A stretch of 64,000 nt of DNA from a virus (lineage: Duplodnaviria > Heunggongvirae > Uroviricota > Caudoviricetes): IMG/VR virus record IMGVR_UViG_3300045988_152430, one strand, 5' to 3'. Below, piece by piece: positions 4,419 through 43,503 of the stretch (positions are counted from its first letter, which is position 1; each line of letters begins with the position of its first letter). The notes under the pieces were generated by a model that searched no databases, was not told where the DNA came from, and saw nothing but the letters and a program-made list of their open reading frames with translations. A program made the position numbers and the translations under genes.

Positions 4419-5140
4419 TGCTTGCCTCCTTTGCGAATCTGTTCCGCCCATTCTTCAAGGGATTTCTCCGCATATTCACCGGACAGGCCATCAATCGGAT
4501 GCGGTTCATTAGCCAACTCTTCTTTCGCTGACAAAATCATGCGTGTAACGTCGAAAACTTCACGCAAAGATTTATTGATAAATCCGTGATTGAACGCAGC
4601 AGCAAGACGGCTGGCGGTATAGTTAATCCCCTCGTTGCGTGCTTCCGCACGAATTTCAGCCAGAAAAGCATCGGTGGCTGAAATATTTCCTGTTGCCTTC
4701 ATGGCCCCCAAAATAACCAGAACGCCATCTCGCCCAACCTCCTCAGCGATAACCTCGGTGTTGTCGCCAACAACATCGCAGAATGCCTGAACTGCCTTAC
4801 GAGCCAGCTCATTCTCCGCCGCCAGCGCCGCGCACTTGGCCTCAAGAGCGGCAACCACTTCCTGATGGTCTTTGTACTTAACGTATGAGCCGGAGATGTC
4901 ATCACCTTCGGTGTTTAGCCATGCGTCATTGCAATTCACTGCGTAGGTTCTGATGCTCATGTTGATGCTCTCCCCCCCCTGACAGACGCTAGGCCAGTCA
5001 ATAAAGTATCCGCAATGCCTACCCTCAGACGTGCGCGCAGGATAAATGCCGTTATGACCCGGCAAAATATATGCTACCCATTCATCTTGCGTTGCCTGTT
5101 TCGCCGCCTCGCGCAGTTCTTTATAGTTAATTTCGCTCAC
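4415..5140 (-). CDS. Ead/Ea22-like phage protein paralogue (241 aa)
   Basis: N-terminus MSEINYKELREAAKQATQDEW paralogous to the 3560..4117 product; C-terminus QIRKGGKQ echoed by the next gene. Confidence 0.6.
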   Translation of the reverse strand: MSEINYKELREAAKQATQDEWVAYILPGHNGIYPARTSEGRHCGYFIDWPSVCQGGESINMSIRTYAVNCNDAWLNTEGDDISGSYVKYKDHQEVVAALEAKCAALAAENELARKAVQAFCDVVGDNTEVIAEEVGRDGVLVILGAMKATGNISATDAFLAEIRAEARNEGINYTASRLAAAFNHGFINKSLREVFDVTRMILSAKEELANEPHPIDGLSGEYAEKSLEEWAEQIRKGGKQ

Positions 5141-5376
5141 TGGTTGCCTCCTTTACGGATCTGCGCTGCGATGCGCGAAAAAAAAGACTCCCGCGTATGA
5201 CTGTTAAGAGCTGGCGCGAACGCTGCGTTAAGAACAGCAGCATCACAGCCGTCATCAATATAGAGCGCAATTTTTTTCTCCAGGCGCGCTTTGGCTTCCT
5301 GCAACTGCATACCCCGGCACGCACGCGGGATATAATCAGCAATTTGAGCGATAGCCTTTTCGTTCTGTTTAAACAT
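5137..5376 (-). CDS. Small hypothetical protein (79 aa)
   Basis: ORF in track; ends ...AAQIRKGGNQ, same C-terminal motif as the 4415..5140 product; ATGA overlap with downstream gene. Confidence 0.4.
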   Translation of the reverse strand: MFKQNEKAIAQIADYIPRACRGMQLQEAKARLEKKIALYIDDGCDAAVLNAAFAPALNSHTRESFFSRIAAQIRKGGNQ

Positions 5377-5572
5377 GCTTCACCTCGATAGGCTTGATGG
5401 TGTCTAACAGCAGTCGGCGGCGCGTATTTTCTGCAAAATGGCGGCGTCCAGTTTCTTTGTGGTAAAACTCGTTTTTGCCGACGACCCACATCCGCTCTGT
5501 TTGGTGCAGTTTTTTTACCTGCGGACCGTCTTTGGTGATCACGGTGCCGGTATGGGTTTTTACGATTGTCAT
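5369..5572 (-). CDS. Small hypothetical protein (67 aa)
   Basis: ORF in track, operon context only. Confidence 0.35.
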   Translation of the reverse strand: MTIVKTHTGTVITKDGPQVKKLHQTERMWVVGKNEFYHKETGRRHFAENTRRRLLLDTIKPIEVKHV

Positions 5573-5655
5573 GCCACTACCTATTCGAACAGATGAACGA
5601 GACAGGCCGATGCTCGTCCACCTGAAAAACTGACGATTTGATGCATACTCACGGT

Positions 5656-6384
5656 TTATTCCTGAATGCGCTTAAACTCGATTACCCACACCCAGGGATT
5701 AGCGTTCCAGCTTTCTTCACCATAGATGGATTCCCACAGACGCTGGAACGCAACCTTGGCCATTGCGAAATCCCCCTTGGGAGTAAGGAATGTTCCCGGG
5801 TGATCAGGAAGCAAACTTCCAGCAGGCGGAACGCCCTCATCCCTTGCATCGCATTCGCTGATATCGTTCAACCGCTCAACGCGCACGTTGGTAATTTCCA
5901 ACAGGATGCGTGATGCCCATCGCGGCATGTGAATTGATGGACGCCACCCACCATCAAACTTTTCATTCACAGTGTGAGGTTTCCAGTCGGCATCATCGGG
6001 TATCGACCATAAACCGTAATCACCAGGCTTTTGCTCACAACTGGCCCGATAAATCCTTGCTGCGTTCTTCTCATCGCCACGACAAAGGTTGTCGTTCCAG
6101 TCCACACTGCAACCATCTTCATTGCCTAATATCGCCCATGTTTCACGAACCCAAATTCGATCGCCGACGATACCAAAGGGGCAATTGAAAACACTGCTTA
6201 CACCATCAGCCCCGTACCACTGAAAACCTGCACCAATTTCCCTAACCATCACTGGTGCTTCTGGACCAACTTCCGCAGGCTGATTTTTCATTATCCGCCG
6301 CGTCTGCGTTTTCCTTCCTTCGAGGATGGCTCGGACCATCTCATCGTTGAAAATCATGCCGCGCTCTTTCACTTCGCCTTTCAT
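5656..6384 (-). CDS. ASCH-like domain protein (242 aa)
   Basis: N-terminal MIFNDEMVRAILEGRKTQTRR and C-terminal VIEFKRI resemble the ASCH fold signature (GRKT..R ... EFK), recalled from YqfB-type proteins. Confidence 0.5.
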   Translation of the reverse strand: MKGEVKERGMIFNDEMVRAILEGRKTQTRRIMKNQPAEVGPEAPVMVREIGAGFQWYGADGVSSVFNCPFGIVGDRIWVRETWAILGNEDGCSVDWNDNLCRGDEKNAARIYRASCEQKPGDYGLWSIPDDADWKPHTVNEKFDGGWRPSIHMPRWASRILLEITNVRVERLNDISECDARDEGVPPAGSLLPDHPGTFLTPKGDFAMAKVAFQRLWESIYGEESWNANPWVWVIEFKRIQE

Positions 6385-6562
6385 GCATCCCCCTTACCCA
6401 TGCGCGACGATGCCGCCAAAAGTGATAGAGAACAGCCAGAAATAGATCGCGGCCATAATGATTTTGAATGCCGTGTTCATATTTTCAGCTCCTGTGATTG
6501 ATTGGATACATGCCGCGCCTTGCGGCATGTTTTTATTTTCACTTTCTCTGTTTTAAAAATCA

Positions 6563-6579
6563 ATATTTATTAGAGCAAT
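6563..6579 (-). promoter_or_regulatory. C1-repressor-type operator (ATTGCTCTAATAAATAT on minus strand)
   Basis: 16/17 match to the asymmetric P1 C1 operator consensus ATTGCTCTAATAAATTT (recalled); sits between two minus-strand gene blocks. Confidence 0.6.
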
Positions 6580-7085
6580 TATTGTTGGTGGAGAAGCGCG
6601 TTTTCATACTCCCTGACCATTAACGTAAGTACGCCGTGACTCCTGAAAACACGCGCCACTTCAATCTTATCTTCCAGCGCGAACGCAATTTTACTTAGAC
6701 CAATTTTCTTCAGGAGATCAATCTTTGCTGGACCGTCATTTCTGTCATCGGTGGCAGGACGCATAGATAGCAAAGGCTCAGCCCCGTTTGTTACGTACTT
6801 CCGCAGCCAGGCTCGTGTTTTATCCCTTGCGATCTCACAGCGCCCGGTTACAAACCAGACCGTGTAAACGTTAAATAACTGGCGCACCATATCAATAACC
6901 GGAGTGATGGGAGTATCGGTGTCACAGGCGAGATTAAACTCGTTCCAGTCCTTTGTTAATGCACCTTTACCTGGTGGCGGAAGCAAATGCAGTCTGTCTT
7001 CAGTTGCCTCTGATATTGTTCCATCAATATCGACTATGACGATATACGGACGTTCCTGGTGTGCATGTTTATTGAAAATACTCAA
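6579..7085 (-). CDS. HAD-superfamily phosphatase-like protein (168 aa)
   Basis: Motif I IVIVDIDGTIS (DxDGT) near N-terminus; size and layout like phage polynucleotide/nucleotide phosphatases. Confidence 0.55.
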   Translation of the reverse strand: MSIFNKHAHQERPYIVIVDIDGTISEATEDRLHLLPPPGKGALTKDWNEFNLACDTDTPITPVIDMVRQLFNVYTVWFVTGRCEIARDKTRAWLRKYVTNGAEPLLSMRPATDDRNDGPAKIDLLKKIGLSKIAFALEDKIEVARVFRSHGVLTLMVREYENALLHQQ

Positions 7086-7157
7086 ATGCCCTCCTCATTG
7101 GACGAAAAAAATGCTGGTGGGCGCACTCCACCAGCATTAAAAGTGACGCTGTAACTA

Positions 7158-8420
7158 TCAGCGGACGTAAATAGTGCCGCCGTTCTCTTTTTCCCATGCA
7201 TCGCTACGTGCATAGCAAACATCGAGAAGTCTTCTTGCCGCTGTTTCCTCTAAACCCAATTCGACAACCAACTGCTCATGACGGCGGGTAACCACATCAA
7301 ACAGGGTATGCAACCCTTTAGTTGCCAGATCATCAATGAATTCCGGTTCGAACGGCAGCTCTGCATCTGCCAACATAACCTCTTGCGCCCACTCAACTCG
7401 ACGGACCAATTCCGGGCGGCGGCTTTCCATCTCTTTACAGATCAATTCATGGAAGAACTCTACCCAACCTTCCGGCTGGAACTCGCGGAAAATTGCCAAC
7501 GGCTGGAAGTTTGGCATCAACCATTCGTTGATTCGGATATCAATGGCATAGCCCATGTCGCAGCAGAACTGATAAGCAAAGTCCAGCTTAGAAACGATAT
7601 AAGGACGCTCGTTATTGAACTCTTTAGGCGATGAGATCCCATAAGCCAGGAGGCGCGGGAAGAAGGAGATTTGCCCTAACGTCGGATGAAGTTTGCTTGC
7701 AGGGAAACGGCGCTCAGTAATGCCATACATTTCCTTCTTGAGCGTCGCAAATTTGGCATTCTCATTAACCAGCGCGGTAACCTCTGCTTTTTTATTAGCA
7801 AATGCCACGCGCGCTTCGCTTGCATCTTTAATAGTTTTTTTGAGCTGTTGGTTAAGGTCGGCGACCTGCTTACGCAGTTCCTGTCGCTCGCTTTTAGCTT
7901 TGTTATAGCGTTTCTCAAGGTTAAAAGGATCAAGTTTCATGATCTCTTTATATTGAGATTTTAGCGTTGAAATCTGTGAGTTCCGCAGTTCAACCATCGC
8001 GGTCATTTCATTGAGTTTTGTTTCCAGCTCAATGCTTATACGTTCGGCATTATCAGCACGCTGGTTGGCGTCATGCGTCGCATTGTCGATCGCGTCCTGT
8101 TGCTGGCGTTTCAAATGTTCAATTTGTAGCTGAAGCTCTTCAATTTCTTTACCCTTCAGACCGAGATCCAACTGCATATTTTCAGCTGCATCTACCAGGG
8201 AGTTATGGCTATCAGCTTCTGCGTTATAAACATCAATAAGCTGTGCGTGAAGCATCTCCGCTGACTGAACCGCATTATCAAAAAAACGCGCTGTGAGGTC
8301 ATCACAACTAACGCGGCGTTGCGCGGCCCGGATGTTCTGGATAATGGCCGGGATACCGGCATTCAGGACGTCAGGGATAGATACATTTTCGATTGATTGG
8401 TTTTGTGCTGAAGTGATCAT
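7158..8420 (-). CDS. Coiled-coil protein with unknown C-terminal domain (420 aa)
   Basis: Long ORF; central heptad-rich segment (ELQLQIEHLKRQQQDAIDNA...), no catalytic motif recognised. Confidence 0.55.
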   Translation of the reverse strand: MITSAQNQSIENVSIPDVLNAGIPAIIQNIRAAQRRVSCDDLTARFFDNAVQSAEMLHAQLIDVYNAEADSHNSLVDAAENMQLDLGLKGKEIEELQLQIEHLKRQQQDAIDNATHDANQRADNAERISIELETKLNEMTAMVELRNSQISTLKSQYKEIMKLDPFNLEKRYNKAKSERQELRKQVADLNQQLKKTIKDASEARVAFANKKAEVTALVNENAKFATLKKEMYGITERRFPASKLHPTLGQISFFPRLLAYGISSPKEFNNERPYIVSKLDFAYQFCCDMGYAIDIRINEWLMPNFQPLAIFREFQPEGWVEFFHELICKEMESRRPELVRRVEWAQEVMLADAELPFEPEFIDDLATKGLHTLFDVVTRRHEQLVVELGLEETAARRLLDVCYARSDAWEKENGGTIYVR

Positions 8421-8421
8421 T

Positions 8422-8640
8422 TCAAAGTTCCGTATTAGCTTGTGCTTCGGTCATTTTTCCTAAGTATGAAGGAGGAAGGACTACGCAATTTGTATCCAGT
8501 CCCTCACCTATGGCAGCCTGTAAAATTCTGGCTAAGGTGAGTCTCTTGTTGCGATACCTGGTGATGACATGCCTGATACCGCCGGTCGGCGTAACAAAGG
8601 CGATCAGCCAGTAGTGATATTTCCGTCGGAATGGCCACAT
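8422..8640 (-). CDS. Small hypothetical protein (72 aa)
   Basis: ORF in track, ATG at 8640 immediately downstream of the operator/hairpin cluster. Confidence 0.4.
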   Translation of the reverse strand: MWPFRRKYHYWLIAFVTPTGGIRHVITRYRNKRLTLARILQAAIGEGLDTNCVVLPPSYLGKMTEAQANTEL

Positions 8641-8654
8641 AGTGCACCTTGTAG

Positions 8655-8671
8655 ATTGCTCTAATAAAAAA
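8655..8671 (+). promoter_or_regulatory. C1-repressor-type operator (ATTGCTCTAATAAAAAA)
   Basis: 14/17 match to C1 operator consensus; paired with an inverted copy 33 bp away. Confidence 0.5.
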
Positions 8672-8703
8672 CGTGATGAGTGTACATCACGTTTTAAAAA
8701 TAT

Positions 8704-8720
8704 GGAATTATTAGAGCAAT
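8704..8720 (-). promoter_or_regulatory. C1-repressor-type operator (ATTGCTCTAATAATTCC on minus strand)
   Basis: 13/17 match; inverted relative to the 8655..8671 copy, the two flanking a perfect 8-bp-stem palindrome (acgtgatg...catcacgt) plus T-run. Confidence 0.5.
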
Positions 8721-8721
8721 A

Positions 8722-9423
8722 TTATTCTGATTCTCGCTCAAAAAATGAGCTGATAAGGGGGAGCCAATCCTCTGACACTTCGCGAGGTCGCGGTTTGCCG
8801 TGGAAAAAGATTATTCGGCAGTCTTTTGGTAATGCCCCATTCCCCCTGGAGTAACGCGCGCTCGCATATTTTGAACCAGGTTCCACAACATCGGCCTTGT
8901 AACTTACAAACCATCCTGGATACAGATCCTGAAATGCTGGTGTATCATCGCCCATAACCTTTCGTAAGAACCCCTGGTCACCCCAGCACTCAGTAGTGAC
9001 ACAACGAGAAATCCAACCTTCCGGATCTTGCCAGAATGAACTCCAGATATGCGCTTTAACACTATTTGGTATCCACAGGGCACCGCTACCACGATATTGT
9101 GGATGGTAAAAATCCCTAAGCATGGTGAAGCTGGTTGGTGGATGCTCTAGGATTGGGCGTATATCACCGGCAATAACCGTGTCCAAATCCAGATAGAACA
9201 GATCATCGGTTATATCCGGTCGGAACAACTCGATTTTCGCCCACCAGCCACGGCACTTTTGCCACTGGTTGATCAATGGGATAACTTTGACGCCAGGTAC
9301 ATGTAAACACTTCAGGTCTGTCAGGCAAATAATTTCATAGTCTTTTGGCAGTTGATTAACCAGCCACTGCACATCGGAAGCGTTATAGTCACCACCAGAG
9401 CGAAGAACTAAAGCAATCTTCAT
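8722..9423 (-). CDS. Glycosyltransferase-like protein with DxD motif (233 aa)
   Basis: [11 protein letters not shown] resembles the GT-A DxD nucleotide-sugar binding motif; otherwise unassigned. Confidence 0.45.
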
Positions 9424-43486: not shown

Positions 43487-43503
43487 AAAATAATTAGAGC
43501 AAC
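43487..43503 (-). promoter_or_regulatory. Weak C1-repressor-type operator upstream of the c4-icd-ant unit
   Basis: 14/17 match (GTTGCTCTAATTATTTT on minus strand). Confidence 0.4.

Follow-up and report, generated by a model that had tools for sequence, protein, structure and literature searches.

A probable terminator and C1-controlled restart promoter at the Op86a/Op86b site of a P1-type phage-plasmid

Described C1-controlled sites and the identity of the locus

In P1 immunity, the C1 repressor binds to asymmetric sites as a monomer. The closest described counterparts of the site discussed here are in the GenBank records of the phage-plasmids P1 and P7. The P1 record (AF234172, also NC_005856) annotates a 'monovalent C1-controlled operator OpmgRb; former Op86b' together with OpmgRa, former Op86a, which 'controls expression of pmgR and pmgS', and places a 'predicted sigma 70 promoter PpmgR' in the same gap. 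The P7 record (AF503408) lists the same two sites as Op(sht[a]) and Op(sht[b]), with C1 binding, and states that they 'regulate expression of sht operon'.

Two other arrangements in P1 are related to this one. In Olpa-Plpa (former Op94/P94), the promoter of the late activator gene lpa, one asymmetric operator overlaps a sigma-70 −35 element; it differs from the present site in having a single operator and neither a nested hairpin nor a T-run. The bivalent operator Oc1ab (former Op99a/b) is similar in that two inverted C1 sites act on one promoter region. However, in bivalent operators, which include Oc1ab and a pair at 22751-22778 in our sequence, the 17-mers overlap, offset by 11 bp, and form one imperfect palindrome, whereas here a predicted terminator hairpin and promoter separate the sites, whose centres lie 49 bp from each other.

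The sequence analysed, referred to below as the window, is a 64,000-nucleotide stretch of the IMG/VR record IMGVR_UViG_3300045988_152430. As judged by its sequence, it is a P1/P7-type phage-plasmid (Punavirus). Over positions 6400-9600 it is 99.8% identical to vB_EcoM-813R1, 98.9% to P7 and 98.7% to P1, and the same region is present in about 690 plasmid records, mostly from Escherichia and Salmonella. Features of P1 were mapped to the window by adding 3399 to the coordinate in the P1 locus (L001). This puts OpmgRb at exactly 8655-8671, and the coordinates of OpmgRa coincide with 8704-8720. The 81-bp gap between pmgQ and pmgR is identical in P1 at 81 of 81 positions, and the 66-bp unit that runs from operator to operator has the same sequence in P1, in P7 and in well over 100 further loci that were fetched. 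The flanking genes (pmgQ, pmgR, pmgS and pap), their orientation and the spacing are also those of P1; P7 departs from this solely in its gene names, with shtA/shtB and hdmD for pmgR/pmgS and pmgQ. It is concluded from these matches that the site is Op86a/Op86b of P1, base for base, and not a mere relative of it. The site is thus already known, and has been catalogued in the P1 and P7 records since the genomes were annotated.

The 'former Op86a/b' names imply earlier work, which reportedly came from the Schuster laboratory. A literature search on Op86 and on a terminator at pmgQ found nothing. The hairpin described below has no terminator label in the P1 or P7 records; this is a weak absence, given that the 16.6 kb of the P1 record examined contain no terminator features of any kind. 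A tblastn search of the window with P1 C1 gave no match, which is expected because collinearity with P1 places c1 just beyond the left end of the window.

The operators and the genes on either side

Operators were searched for using the asymmetric 17-bp C1 consensus ATTGCTCTAATAAATTT with up to 3 mismatches. The window contains nine such sites compared to 0.28 expected, and none of 100 shuffled sequences reached nine. The operators relevant to this locus are:

8655-8671, plus strand: Op86b (OpmgRb; Op(sht[b])), ATTGCTCTAATAAAAAA, 3 mismatches, predicted C1 site
8704-8720, minus strand: Op86a (OpmgRa; Op(sht[a])), ATTGCTCTAATAATTCC, 3 mismatches, predicted C1 site
6563-6579, minus strand: Op88 (OpmgT), C1 operator with 1 mismatch, start of the next unit
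11421-11437, plus strand: Oppp (former Op83), 4 mismatches, located from the P1 feature at L001 8022-8038 by adding 3399

An initial annotation of the window, made from the sequence alone, had proposed two C1-type operators in opposite orientation at 8655-8671 and 8704-8720, and a further one at 6563-6579. All three are real matches to the consensus in the positions proposed. Op86a and Op86b each match 14 of its 17 positions; they are identical to it in bases 1-13, and the differences all lie in the last four. The operator arms, 8655-8667 and 8708-8720, form an inverted repeat of 13 nt with 100% complementarity. At its 3′ end Op86b reads AAAAAA where the consensus has AAATTT. This A6 is the T6 of the opposite strand, so that the departure of Op86b from the consensus gives the gene strand exactly its U-run.

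An alignment (A3) was made of 21 distinct sequences, which belong to four lineages. Beyond the P1/P7 group, the gene order is kept in a lineage consisting of the Cronobacter phage JK004 (71% DNA identity) grouped with the IMG/VR contig L089, in a Salmonella group of plasmids and contigs (L005, L006 and L090-L092), and in the contig L093. Between lineages, PmgS is 68-75% identical. The core of Op86a is constant across the 21 distinct sequences except for one C-to-T change in L089, and columns 50-65 of the alignment, which cover Op86b, are invariant. Of the 13 'pairs' that the two operator arms could form, 11 never vary. This constancy amounts to conservation of sequence, and is therefore uninformative on structure.

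The length of the unit is equally constant. Counted with both operators included, it is exactly 66 bp in all four lineages. In pattern scans of IMG/VR and of metagenomes, every one among the matches listed was 64 or 65 nt, and the operator cores were 40 nt apart among the matches listed, or 41 nt in rare T7 or A5 variants. These scans showed no fifth lineage, and a scan of contigs for further lineages gave two near-identical loci only.

The genes and signals around the unit are as follows:

8722-9423, minus strand: pmgQ (hdmD), last gene of the pmgN-pmgO-pmgP-ppp-pmgQ unit, with 1 nt between its stop and Op86a
8645-8650, minus strand: Shine-Dalgarno sequence AAGGTG, 4 nt 5′ of the pmgR ATG
8422-8640, minus strand: pmgR (shtA), 72 aa, first gene of the unit thought to be restarted
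7158-8420, minus strand: pmgS (shtB), 420 aa, second gene of that unit
7110-7138, minus strand: strong predicted terminator after pmgS, with an 11-bp stem containing 6 GC pairs followed by T7; likely end of the unit
6579-7085, minus strand: pap (phosphatase/kinase-like), behind the pmgS terminator; its stop overlaps Op88

The locus is indeed a gap between two blocks of minus-strand genes, as first described, although it measures 81 bp from the pmgQ stop to the pmgR ATG and not 70 bp. Reading along the minus strand, the pmgQ TAA (8724-8722) is followed by one base, Op86a, ATATTTT and the hairpin, and then by the rest of Op86b in reverse, CTAC, the Shine-Dalgarno AAGGTG, CACT and the ATG of pmgR. 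A plus-strand open reading frame (8642-8854, 70 aa) begins with GTG inside an operator and runs antisense to pmgQ; it was treated as spurious.

The hairpin as a putative terminator

Between the two operators, the repeat search and folding identified the following features:

8668-8695, minus strand: hairpin with a perfect 11-bp stem and a 6-nt loop
8671-8666, minus strand: T6 run directly 3′ of the stem, constant across the lineages

The arms of this inner palindrome (8668-8678 and 8685-8695, 11 nt each) are 100% complementary. Its core is a 7-bp stem, CGTGATG/CATCACG (8691-8685 with 8678-8672), which is extended to 11 bp by four A-U pairs, and the loop at 8684-8679 is TACACT. On the minus strand the hairpin reads TAAAACGTGATG-TACACT-CATCACGTTTT, where the last T's are part of T6, and it begins 26 nt past the pmgQ stop. 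The palindrome had originally been described as a perfect one with an 8-bp stem. It is perfect, but the 8 bp are part of the longer stem; the T-run noted on the minus strand is the T6 directly behind it.

The minus-strand segment 8655-8700 (46 nt) folds with a predicted energy of −13.4 kcal/mol (z = −5.3), which was not equalled by any of 200 shuffled sequences. The hairpin was scored as a terminator using the discriminant of d'Aubenton Carafa et al. 1990, with energies from ViennaRNA; the values are approximate. The approximate score is +10.7 on the gene strand, compared to −20.7 on the plus strand. In the other lineages it ranges from +11.6 to +13.6 on the gene strand and from −18.2 to −75.4 on the plus strand, and for comparison the terminator after pmgS scores +12.6. 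A terminator acting on the plus strand was considered and rejected, since the T-run in that direction is only 4 in P1 and is missing in JK004, and the score is negative.

The promoter and terminator scan of the window did not include this hairpin in its list of terminators. It was missed because the stem was extended through the four A-U pairs, which left fewer than 5 T in the tail. A search of Rfam matched a plant miRNA hairpin only, at 19.6 bits compared to a gathering score of 211, and the match was attributed to chance. Taken together, the features of the hairpin support its assignment as a moderate intrinsic terminator for pmgQ transcripts, predicted to act in one direction only.

We considered whether the hairpin could have a different function, as a stabilizer of the RNA 3′ end or a processing site of the pmgQ message, or simply as a palindromic spacer, with the operators being real in either case. 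A short and rather AT-rich stem, whose core has an energy of only −8.5 kcal/mol, is in keeping with such a function; so is the finding that the whole 66-nt unit can fold as one long hairpin of −26.9 kcal/mol, which in read-through RNA would be a possible RNase III-type substrate. On the other hand, T6 is constant and Op86b deviates from the consensus exactly so as to create it, and the terminator score is positive on the gene strand only, in all lineages. The stem has also been retained through compensatory and wobble changes, as described next. Expression data that bear on the same question are presented in the following section; with these included, we regard a function other than termination as improbable.

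The inner helix varies much more than the operators. In two of its pairs both partners are replaced (G-C by A-U and A-U by G-C), and six vary on one side only with pairing kept; overall, 97.4% of cells in the alignment are paired. The compensatory changes represent only two events, on one branch. We also looked at which strand the single changes favour. A transition in a single arm keeps a G·U pair on one strand and produces an A·C mismatch on the other, and so can distinguish the two. The gene strand has 14 G·U-compatible cells compared to 3 for the other strand. Counted as event types, there are 10 for the gene strand and 3 for the other (one-sided p = 0.046, from four lineages), and adding the metagenome variants gave a hand count of 11 to 4 (p about 0.06). 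In JK004 and L089, for example, a C·A mismatch in the DNA palindrome, read on the plus strand, is a U·G pair in RNA of the gene strand. The compensatory and wobble changes thus support the suggestion that the hairpin is kept as an RNA structure of the gene strand.

The same data bear on the suggestion that the inner palindrome is a site for a dimeric DNA-binding protein, of phage or host, whose half-sites co-evolve. A symmetric site of this kind would change in both arms together, as two of the pairs do, and would fit with the fixed spacing of the unit. However, half-sites do not predict that single-arm changes should be common and biased towards gene-strand G·U (10 vs 3). In addition, the C·A mismatch in the DNA of JK004 and L089 is a U·G pair in gene-strand RNA, and neither the P1 nor the P7 record annotates a site of this kind. 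We consider this explanation very improbable. The fixed spacing can be put down instead to the overlapping limits on length set by promoter spacer, stem and T-run. Looping between the operators mediated by C1 may also occur, although the fixed 66 bp can be explained without it.

The proposed restart promoter and expression of pmgR and pmgS

Published data on transcription across the junction are available in the supplement of a study of P1vir infection by RNA-seq (PMC8201110), which gives log fold changes per gene in wild-type (WT) and dksA hosts. The values for the genes of interest at 10 and 30 min, in the order of transcription, are:

pmgO: WT 7.39 (10 min), 11.77 (30 min); dksA 6.63 (10 min), 11.03 (30 min)
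pmgP: WT 6.99 (10 min), 11.32 (30 min); dksA 6.52 (10 min), 11.19 (30 min)
ppp: WT 6.95 (10 min), 11.49 (30 min); dksA 6.09 (10 min), 11.01 (30 min)
pmgQ: WT 7.05 (10 min), 11.66 (30 min); dksA 6.23 (10 min), 11.23 (30 min)
pmgR: WT 9.02 (10 min), 10.81 (30 min); dksA 9.00 (10 min), 10.44 (30 min)
pmgS: WT 9.99 (10 min), 11.70 (30 min); dksA 9.09 (10 min), 10.59 (30 min)
pap: WT 8.45 (10 min), 11.23 (30 min); dksA 7.78 (10 min), 10.75 (30 min)
pmgT: WT 9.72 (10 min), 11.66 (30 min); dksA 9.05 (10 min), 10.70 (30 min)

At 10 min there is a rise of about 2.0-2.8 log units from pmgQ to pmgR in both hosts (PMC8201110), although the values are fold changes for each gene against its uninfected baseline, so that comparison between genes is approximate. 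This early step fits what a separate early promoter in the gap predicts. It places pmgR and pmgS in the early class with ref, kilA, dmt and pmgT. The first three of these are presumably preceded by C1 operators in P1.

At 30 min, with the same caution on comparing genes, pmgR is lower than pmgQ by about 0.8 log units in either host (PMC8201110). This drop fits with partial termination at the hairpin, and argues against the view that the hairpin only stabilizes or processes the message. That view draws some support from pmgS, which at 30 min in WT is as abundant as pmgQ (11.70 and 11.66; PMC8201110). From the equality of pmgS and pmgQ we conclude that termination is at most partial.

Further downstream, the predicted terminator after pmgS sits 20 bases past the pmgS stop, and the window scan found no promoter-like site between it and the start of pap. 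At 10 min, pap is 1.3-1.5 log units lower than pmgS, and expression is higher again for pmgT, which follows Op88 (PMC8201110). Given the terminator and the fall in expression before pap, the restarted unit is pmgR-pmgS, as the P1 record states, and pap is therefore taken to be expressed by read-through. The initial annotation had assigned all genes from 8640 down to about 6580 to one separately controlled unit. This is supported as far as pmgR and pmgS are concerned, but the block is not uniform down to 6580, as the terminator at 7110-7138 splits off pap. Its description of these genes as separately repressible also needs qualification: the upstream pmgN-pmgQ genes are themselves behind a C1 operator, Oppp, so that pmgR-pmgS is a second repressed unit and not the sole one. 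In P1, pmgR is essential, and its deletion leads to unjoined heads and tails (PMC9024508).

Two candidates for the restart promoter overlap one another:

8691-8719, minus strand: PpmgR, predicted in the P1 record; −35 TTGCTC (8719-8714), 17-bp spacer, −10 TAAAAC (8696-8691)
8679-8707, minus strand: alternative candidate, put forward here by inference only; −35-like TTCCAT (8707-8702), 17-bp spacer, −10 TACACT (8684-8679)

PpmgR matches the consensus at 7 of 12 positions. Its −35 lies inside Op86a, and transcription from it would begin in the hairpin loop, near 8684. The alternative matches 6 of 12 positions here and 7-8 of 12 in the other lineages. Its −10 is the loop hexamer itself, which would place the start where the stem ends on its 3′ side, near G8672, so that Op86b would span about +2 to +18. 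Neither candidate was flagged by the window scan, which had a threshold of 9/12. A late promoter dependent on Lpa was also considered, and was rejected because the '−22' boxes of P1, AAGTTACTT and TAGTCATTT, have no counterpart in the gap.

The second candidate is best seen as a refinement more than a rival: the junction would be controlled by C1 in the same way, with Op86a over the −35 region (TTCCAT, 8707-8702), and only the −10 would be different. In a sigma-70 −10 element, the best conserved bases are T−12, A−11 and T−7. The P1 group has TACACT as its loop hexamer; TATCAT is shared by JK004, L093 and the Salmonella lineage, L089 has TATTAT, and TACGCT occurs as a further variant among the 21 distinct sequences. 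Positions 1, 2 and 6 (T, A and T) are constant in 21 of 21, while positions 3-5 vary, which is the conservation pattern of a −10, and TATCAT and TATTAT each match TATAAT at 5 of 6 positions. By contrast, the annotated TAAAAC lacks the final T, its last base being C in every lineage. It is TAAAGC in L006 and L089 and TGAAGC in JK004, with position 2 changed from A to G in JK004 and L032. These changes are all G·U-compatible with the U-run, suggesting that the columns evolve as a stem, unlike a −10. The P1 promoter Plpa provides a further parallel: its −35 begins at operator position 15, and the alternative −35 here begins at position 14, so that the two registers agree within 1 bp. Plpa carries no 'predicted' label in the P1 record.

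Other points speak against the loop hexamer. The −35 candidates that would go with it are poor, matching 2-3 of 6 positions (TTCCAT, TTTTAA and TTTCAT). The conservation argument comes from four lineages only, and conservation of exactly these 3 of 6 positions would be expected about 1 time in 20 by chance. In addition, the window has five operators that point towards a downstream gene on the operator's own strand. Four of them (6563, 8704, 26284 and 41430) have TA exactly 17 bp past TTGCTC, while the fifth (43487) has TT; this favours the annotated PpmgR. On balance, we regard the loop hexamer as a credible but somewhat less probable choice of −10.

Whichever −10 is used, RNA started locally would not contain the 5′ arm of the hairpin, and so could not terminate itself. 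This leads to a model for the junction as a whole. Minus-strand transcripts arriving from pmgN-pmgQ would copy the entire hairpin (8695-8668) and U6, and a part of them would terminate. Within that DNA, a weak sigma-70 promoter would restart transcription into pmgR-pmgS, from a site inside the hairpin or at its 3′ foot, and the new RNA, lacking the 5′ arm, would escape termination. Op86a would cover the −35 region and Op86b the first stretch past the start site. With a C1 monomer on each operator, pmgR-pmgS would be silent in a lysogen, and after infection or induction the nested promoter would fire early. For this site, we infer that C1 is bound, where exactly transcription begins and how efficient the terminator is.

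That the junction combines a terminator with a repressor-controlled restart was the reading of the initial annotation, and it is supported by the annotation of P1 and P7, the covariation in the stem, the strand-specific terminator score and the step in expression. We therefore consider it likely that pmgQ and pmgR are separated by a terminator and a C1-controlled restart promoter, both contained within 66 bp. A stronger version is that the two form one interlocked device, in which the −10 is the hairpin loop and the −10 of PpmgR in GenBank is misassigned. The same 28 bp would then serve as a stop signal for an incoming polymerase and as −10 and start site for an initiating polymerase, with one C1 monomer on each side; the length of this arrangement is the same to the base in four diverged P1-like lineages. 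We put this version forward tentatively, as rather less likely to be right than wrong.

The finding is real but ordinary. The present analysis adds to the existing annotation the comparative evidence for a conserved hairpin in the gene-strand RNA, and a published step in expression that is compatible with a restart promoter in the gap. It has little significance beyond showing that C1 operators and a terminator can be recognized from sequence alone. The only point that is possibly new is which hexamer serves as the −10, and an answer to this could help in the engineering of P1 or in the use of C1-controlled promoters as parts.

Arrangement of the gene-facing operators

Five of the C1 operators identified by consensus match face the downstream gene on their own strand, and all of these are on the minus strand (at 6563, 8704, 26284, 41430 and 43487). 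In four of the five, a TA is found exactly 17 bp past the operator TTGCTC, within the hexamers TAAAAC, TAAAAC, TATGTC and TAAGTG. The exception is the operator at 43487, which has TTAGCT at that position and the TA one base further on. Op86a (8704-8720), which lies between pmgQ and pmgR, and Op88 (6563-6579), which follows pap, have the longer string ATTTTTAAAAC in common. The arrangement TTGCTC-17 bp-TA may, to judge from its sequence, be a promoter module shared among C1 operators.

Hairpins on either side of pap

Two hairpins were predicted:
7110-7138, minus strand, strong intrinsic terminator with an 11-bp stem (6 GC pairs) followed by T7
6508-6530, GC-rich hairpin of 10 bp, terminator-like on the plus strand only, T-run TTTTATTTT

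The first comes after the pmgS stop codon and before pap begins. No promoter-like site was found between this terminator and the start of pap, and expression of pap therefore looks dependent on read-through. In published RNA-seq of P1vir (PMC8201110), early expression of pap is 1.3-1.5 log units lower than that of pmgS.

The second hairpin lies a short way downstream of the promoter region at Op88. The genes around it are on the minus strand, whereas the terminator-like signal is on the plus strand only. It may act as a block to antisense transcription, or it may form a structure in the leader of the transcript from Op88.

Further operators in the window

Four other sites were assigned, the first two by consensus match and the last two by position:
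22751-22767, plus strand, predicted C1 operator, 2 mismatches to consensus
22762-22778, minus strand, predicted C1 operator, 0 mismatches to consensus
11421-11437, plus strand, counterpart of P1 Oppp (former Op83), agreeing with the consensus at only 13/17 positions
12328-12344, plus strand, counterpart of P1 O26 (former Op82)

The first two are inverted with a 6-bp overlap, and form a predicted 'bivalent' operator adjoining the methyltransferase gene dmt/dam. Two C1 sites are annotated at the matching position in the P7 record. The operator search, made at up to 3 mismatches, missed Oppp, and this threshold thus overlooks some catalogued operators.

Variation among relatives

Among the P1-like plasmids (hits H55-H59, and locus L004, NZ_CP117591.1), some have a match that stops at window position 8899 or 8608, and in one Escherichia albertii plasmid an IS911-family transposase is close to the Op86a/Op86b site. 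Together, these match ends and the nearby transposase suggest that some members of the P1-like plasmid population have been rearranged within pmgQ or close to it.

In the region behind Op88 (window 5000-6560), the P1 and P7 records differ. Downstream of Op88, the P1 record contains pmgT-pmgU-pmgV, while the P7 record contains the upf86.8-upf88.3 genes. Given this difference, the cargo behind Op88 is variable within the family.
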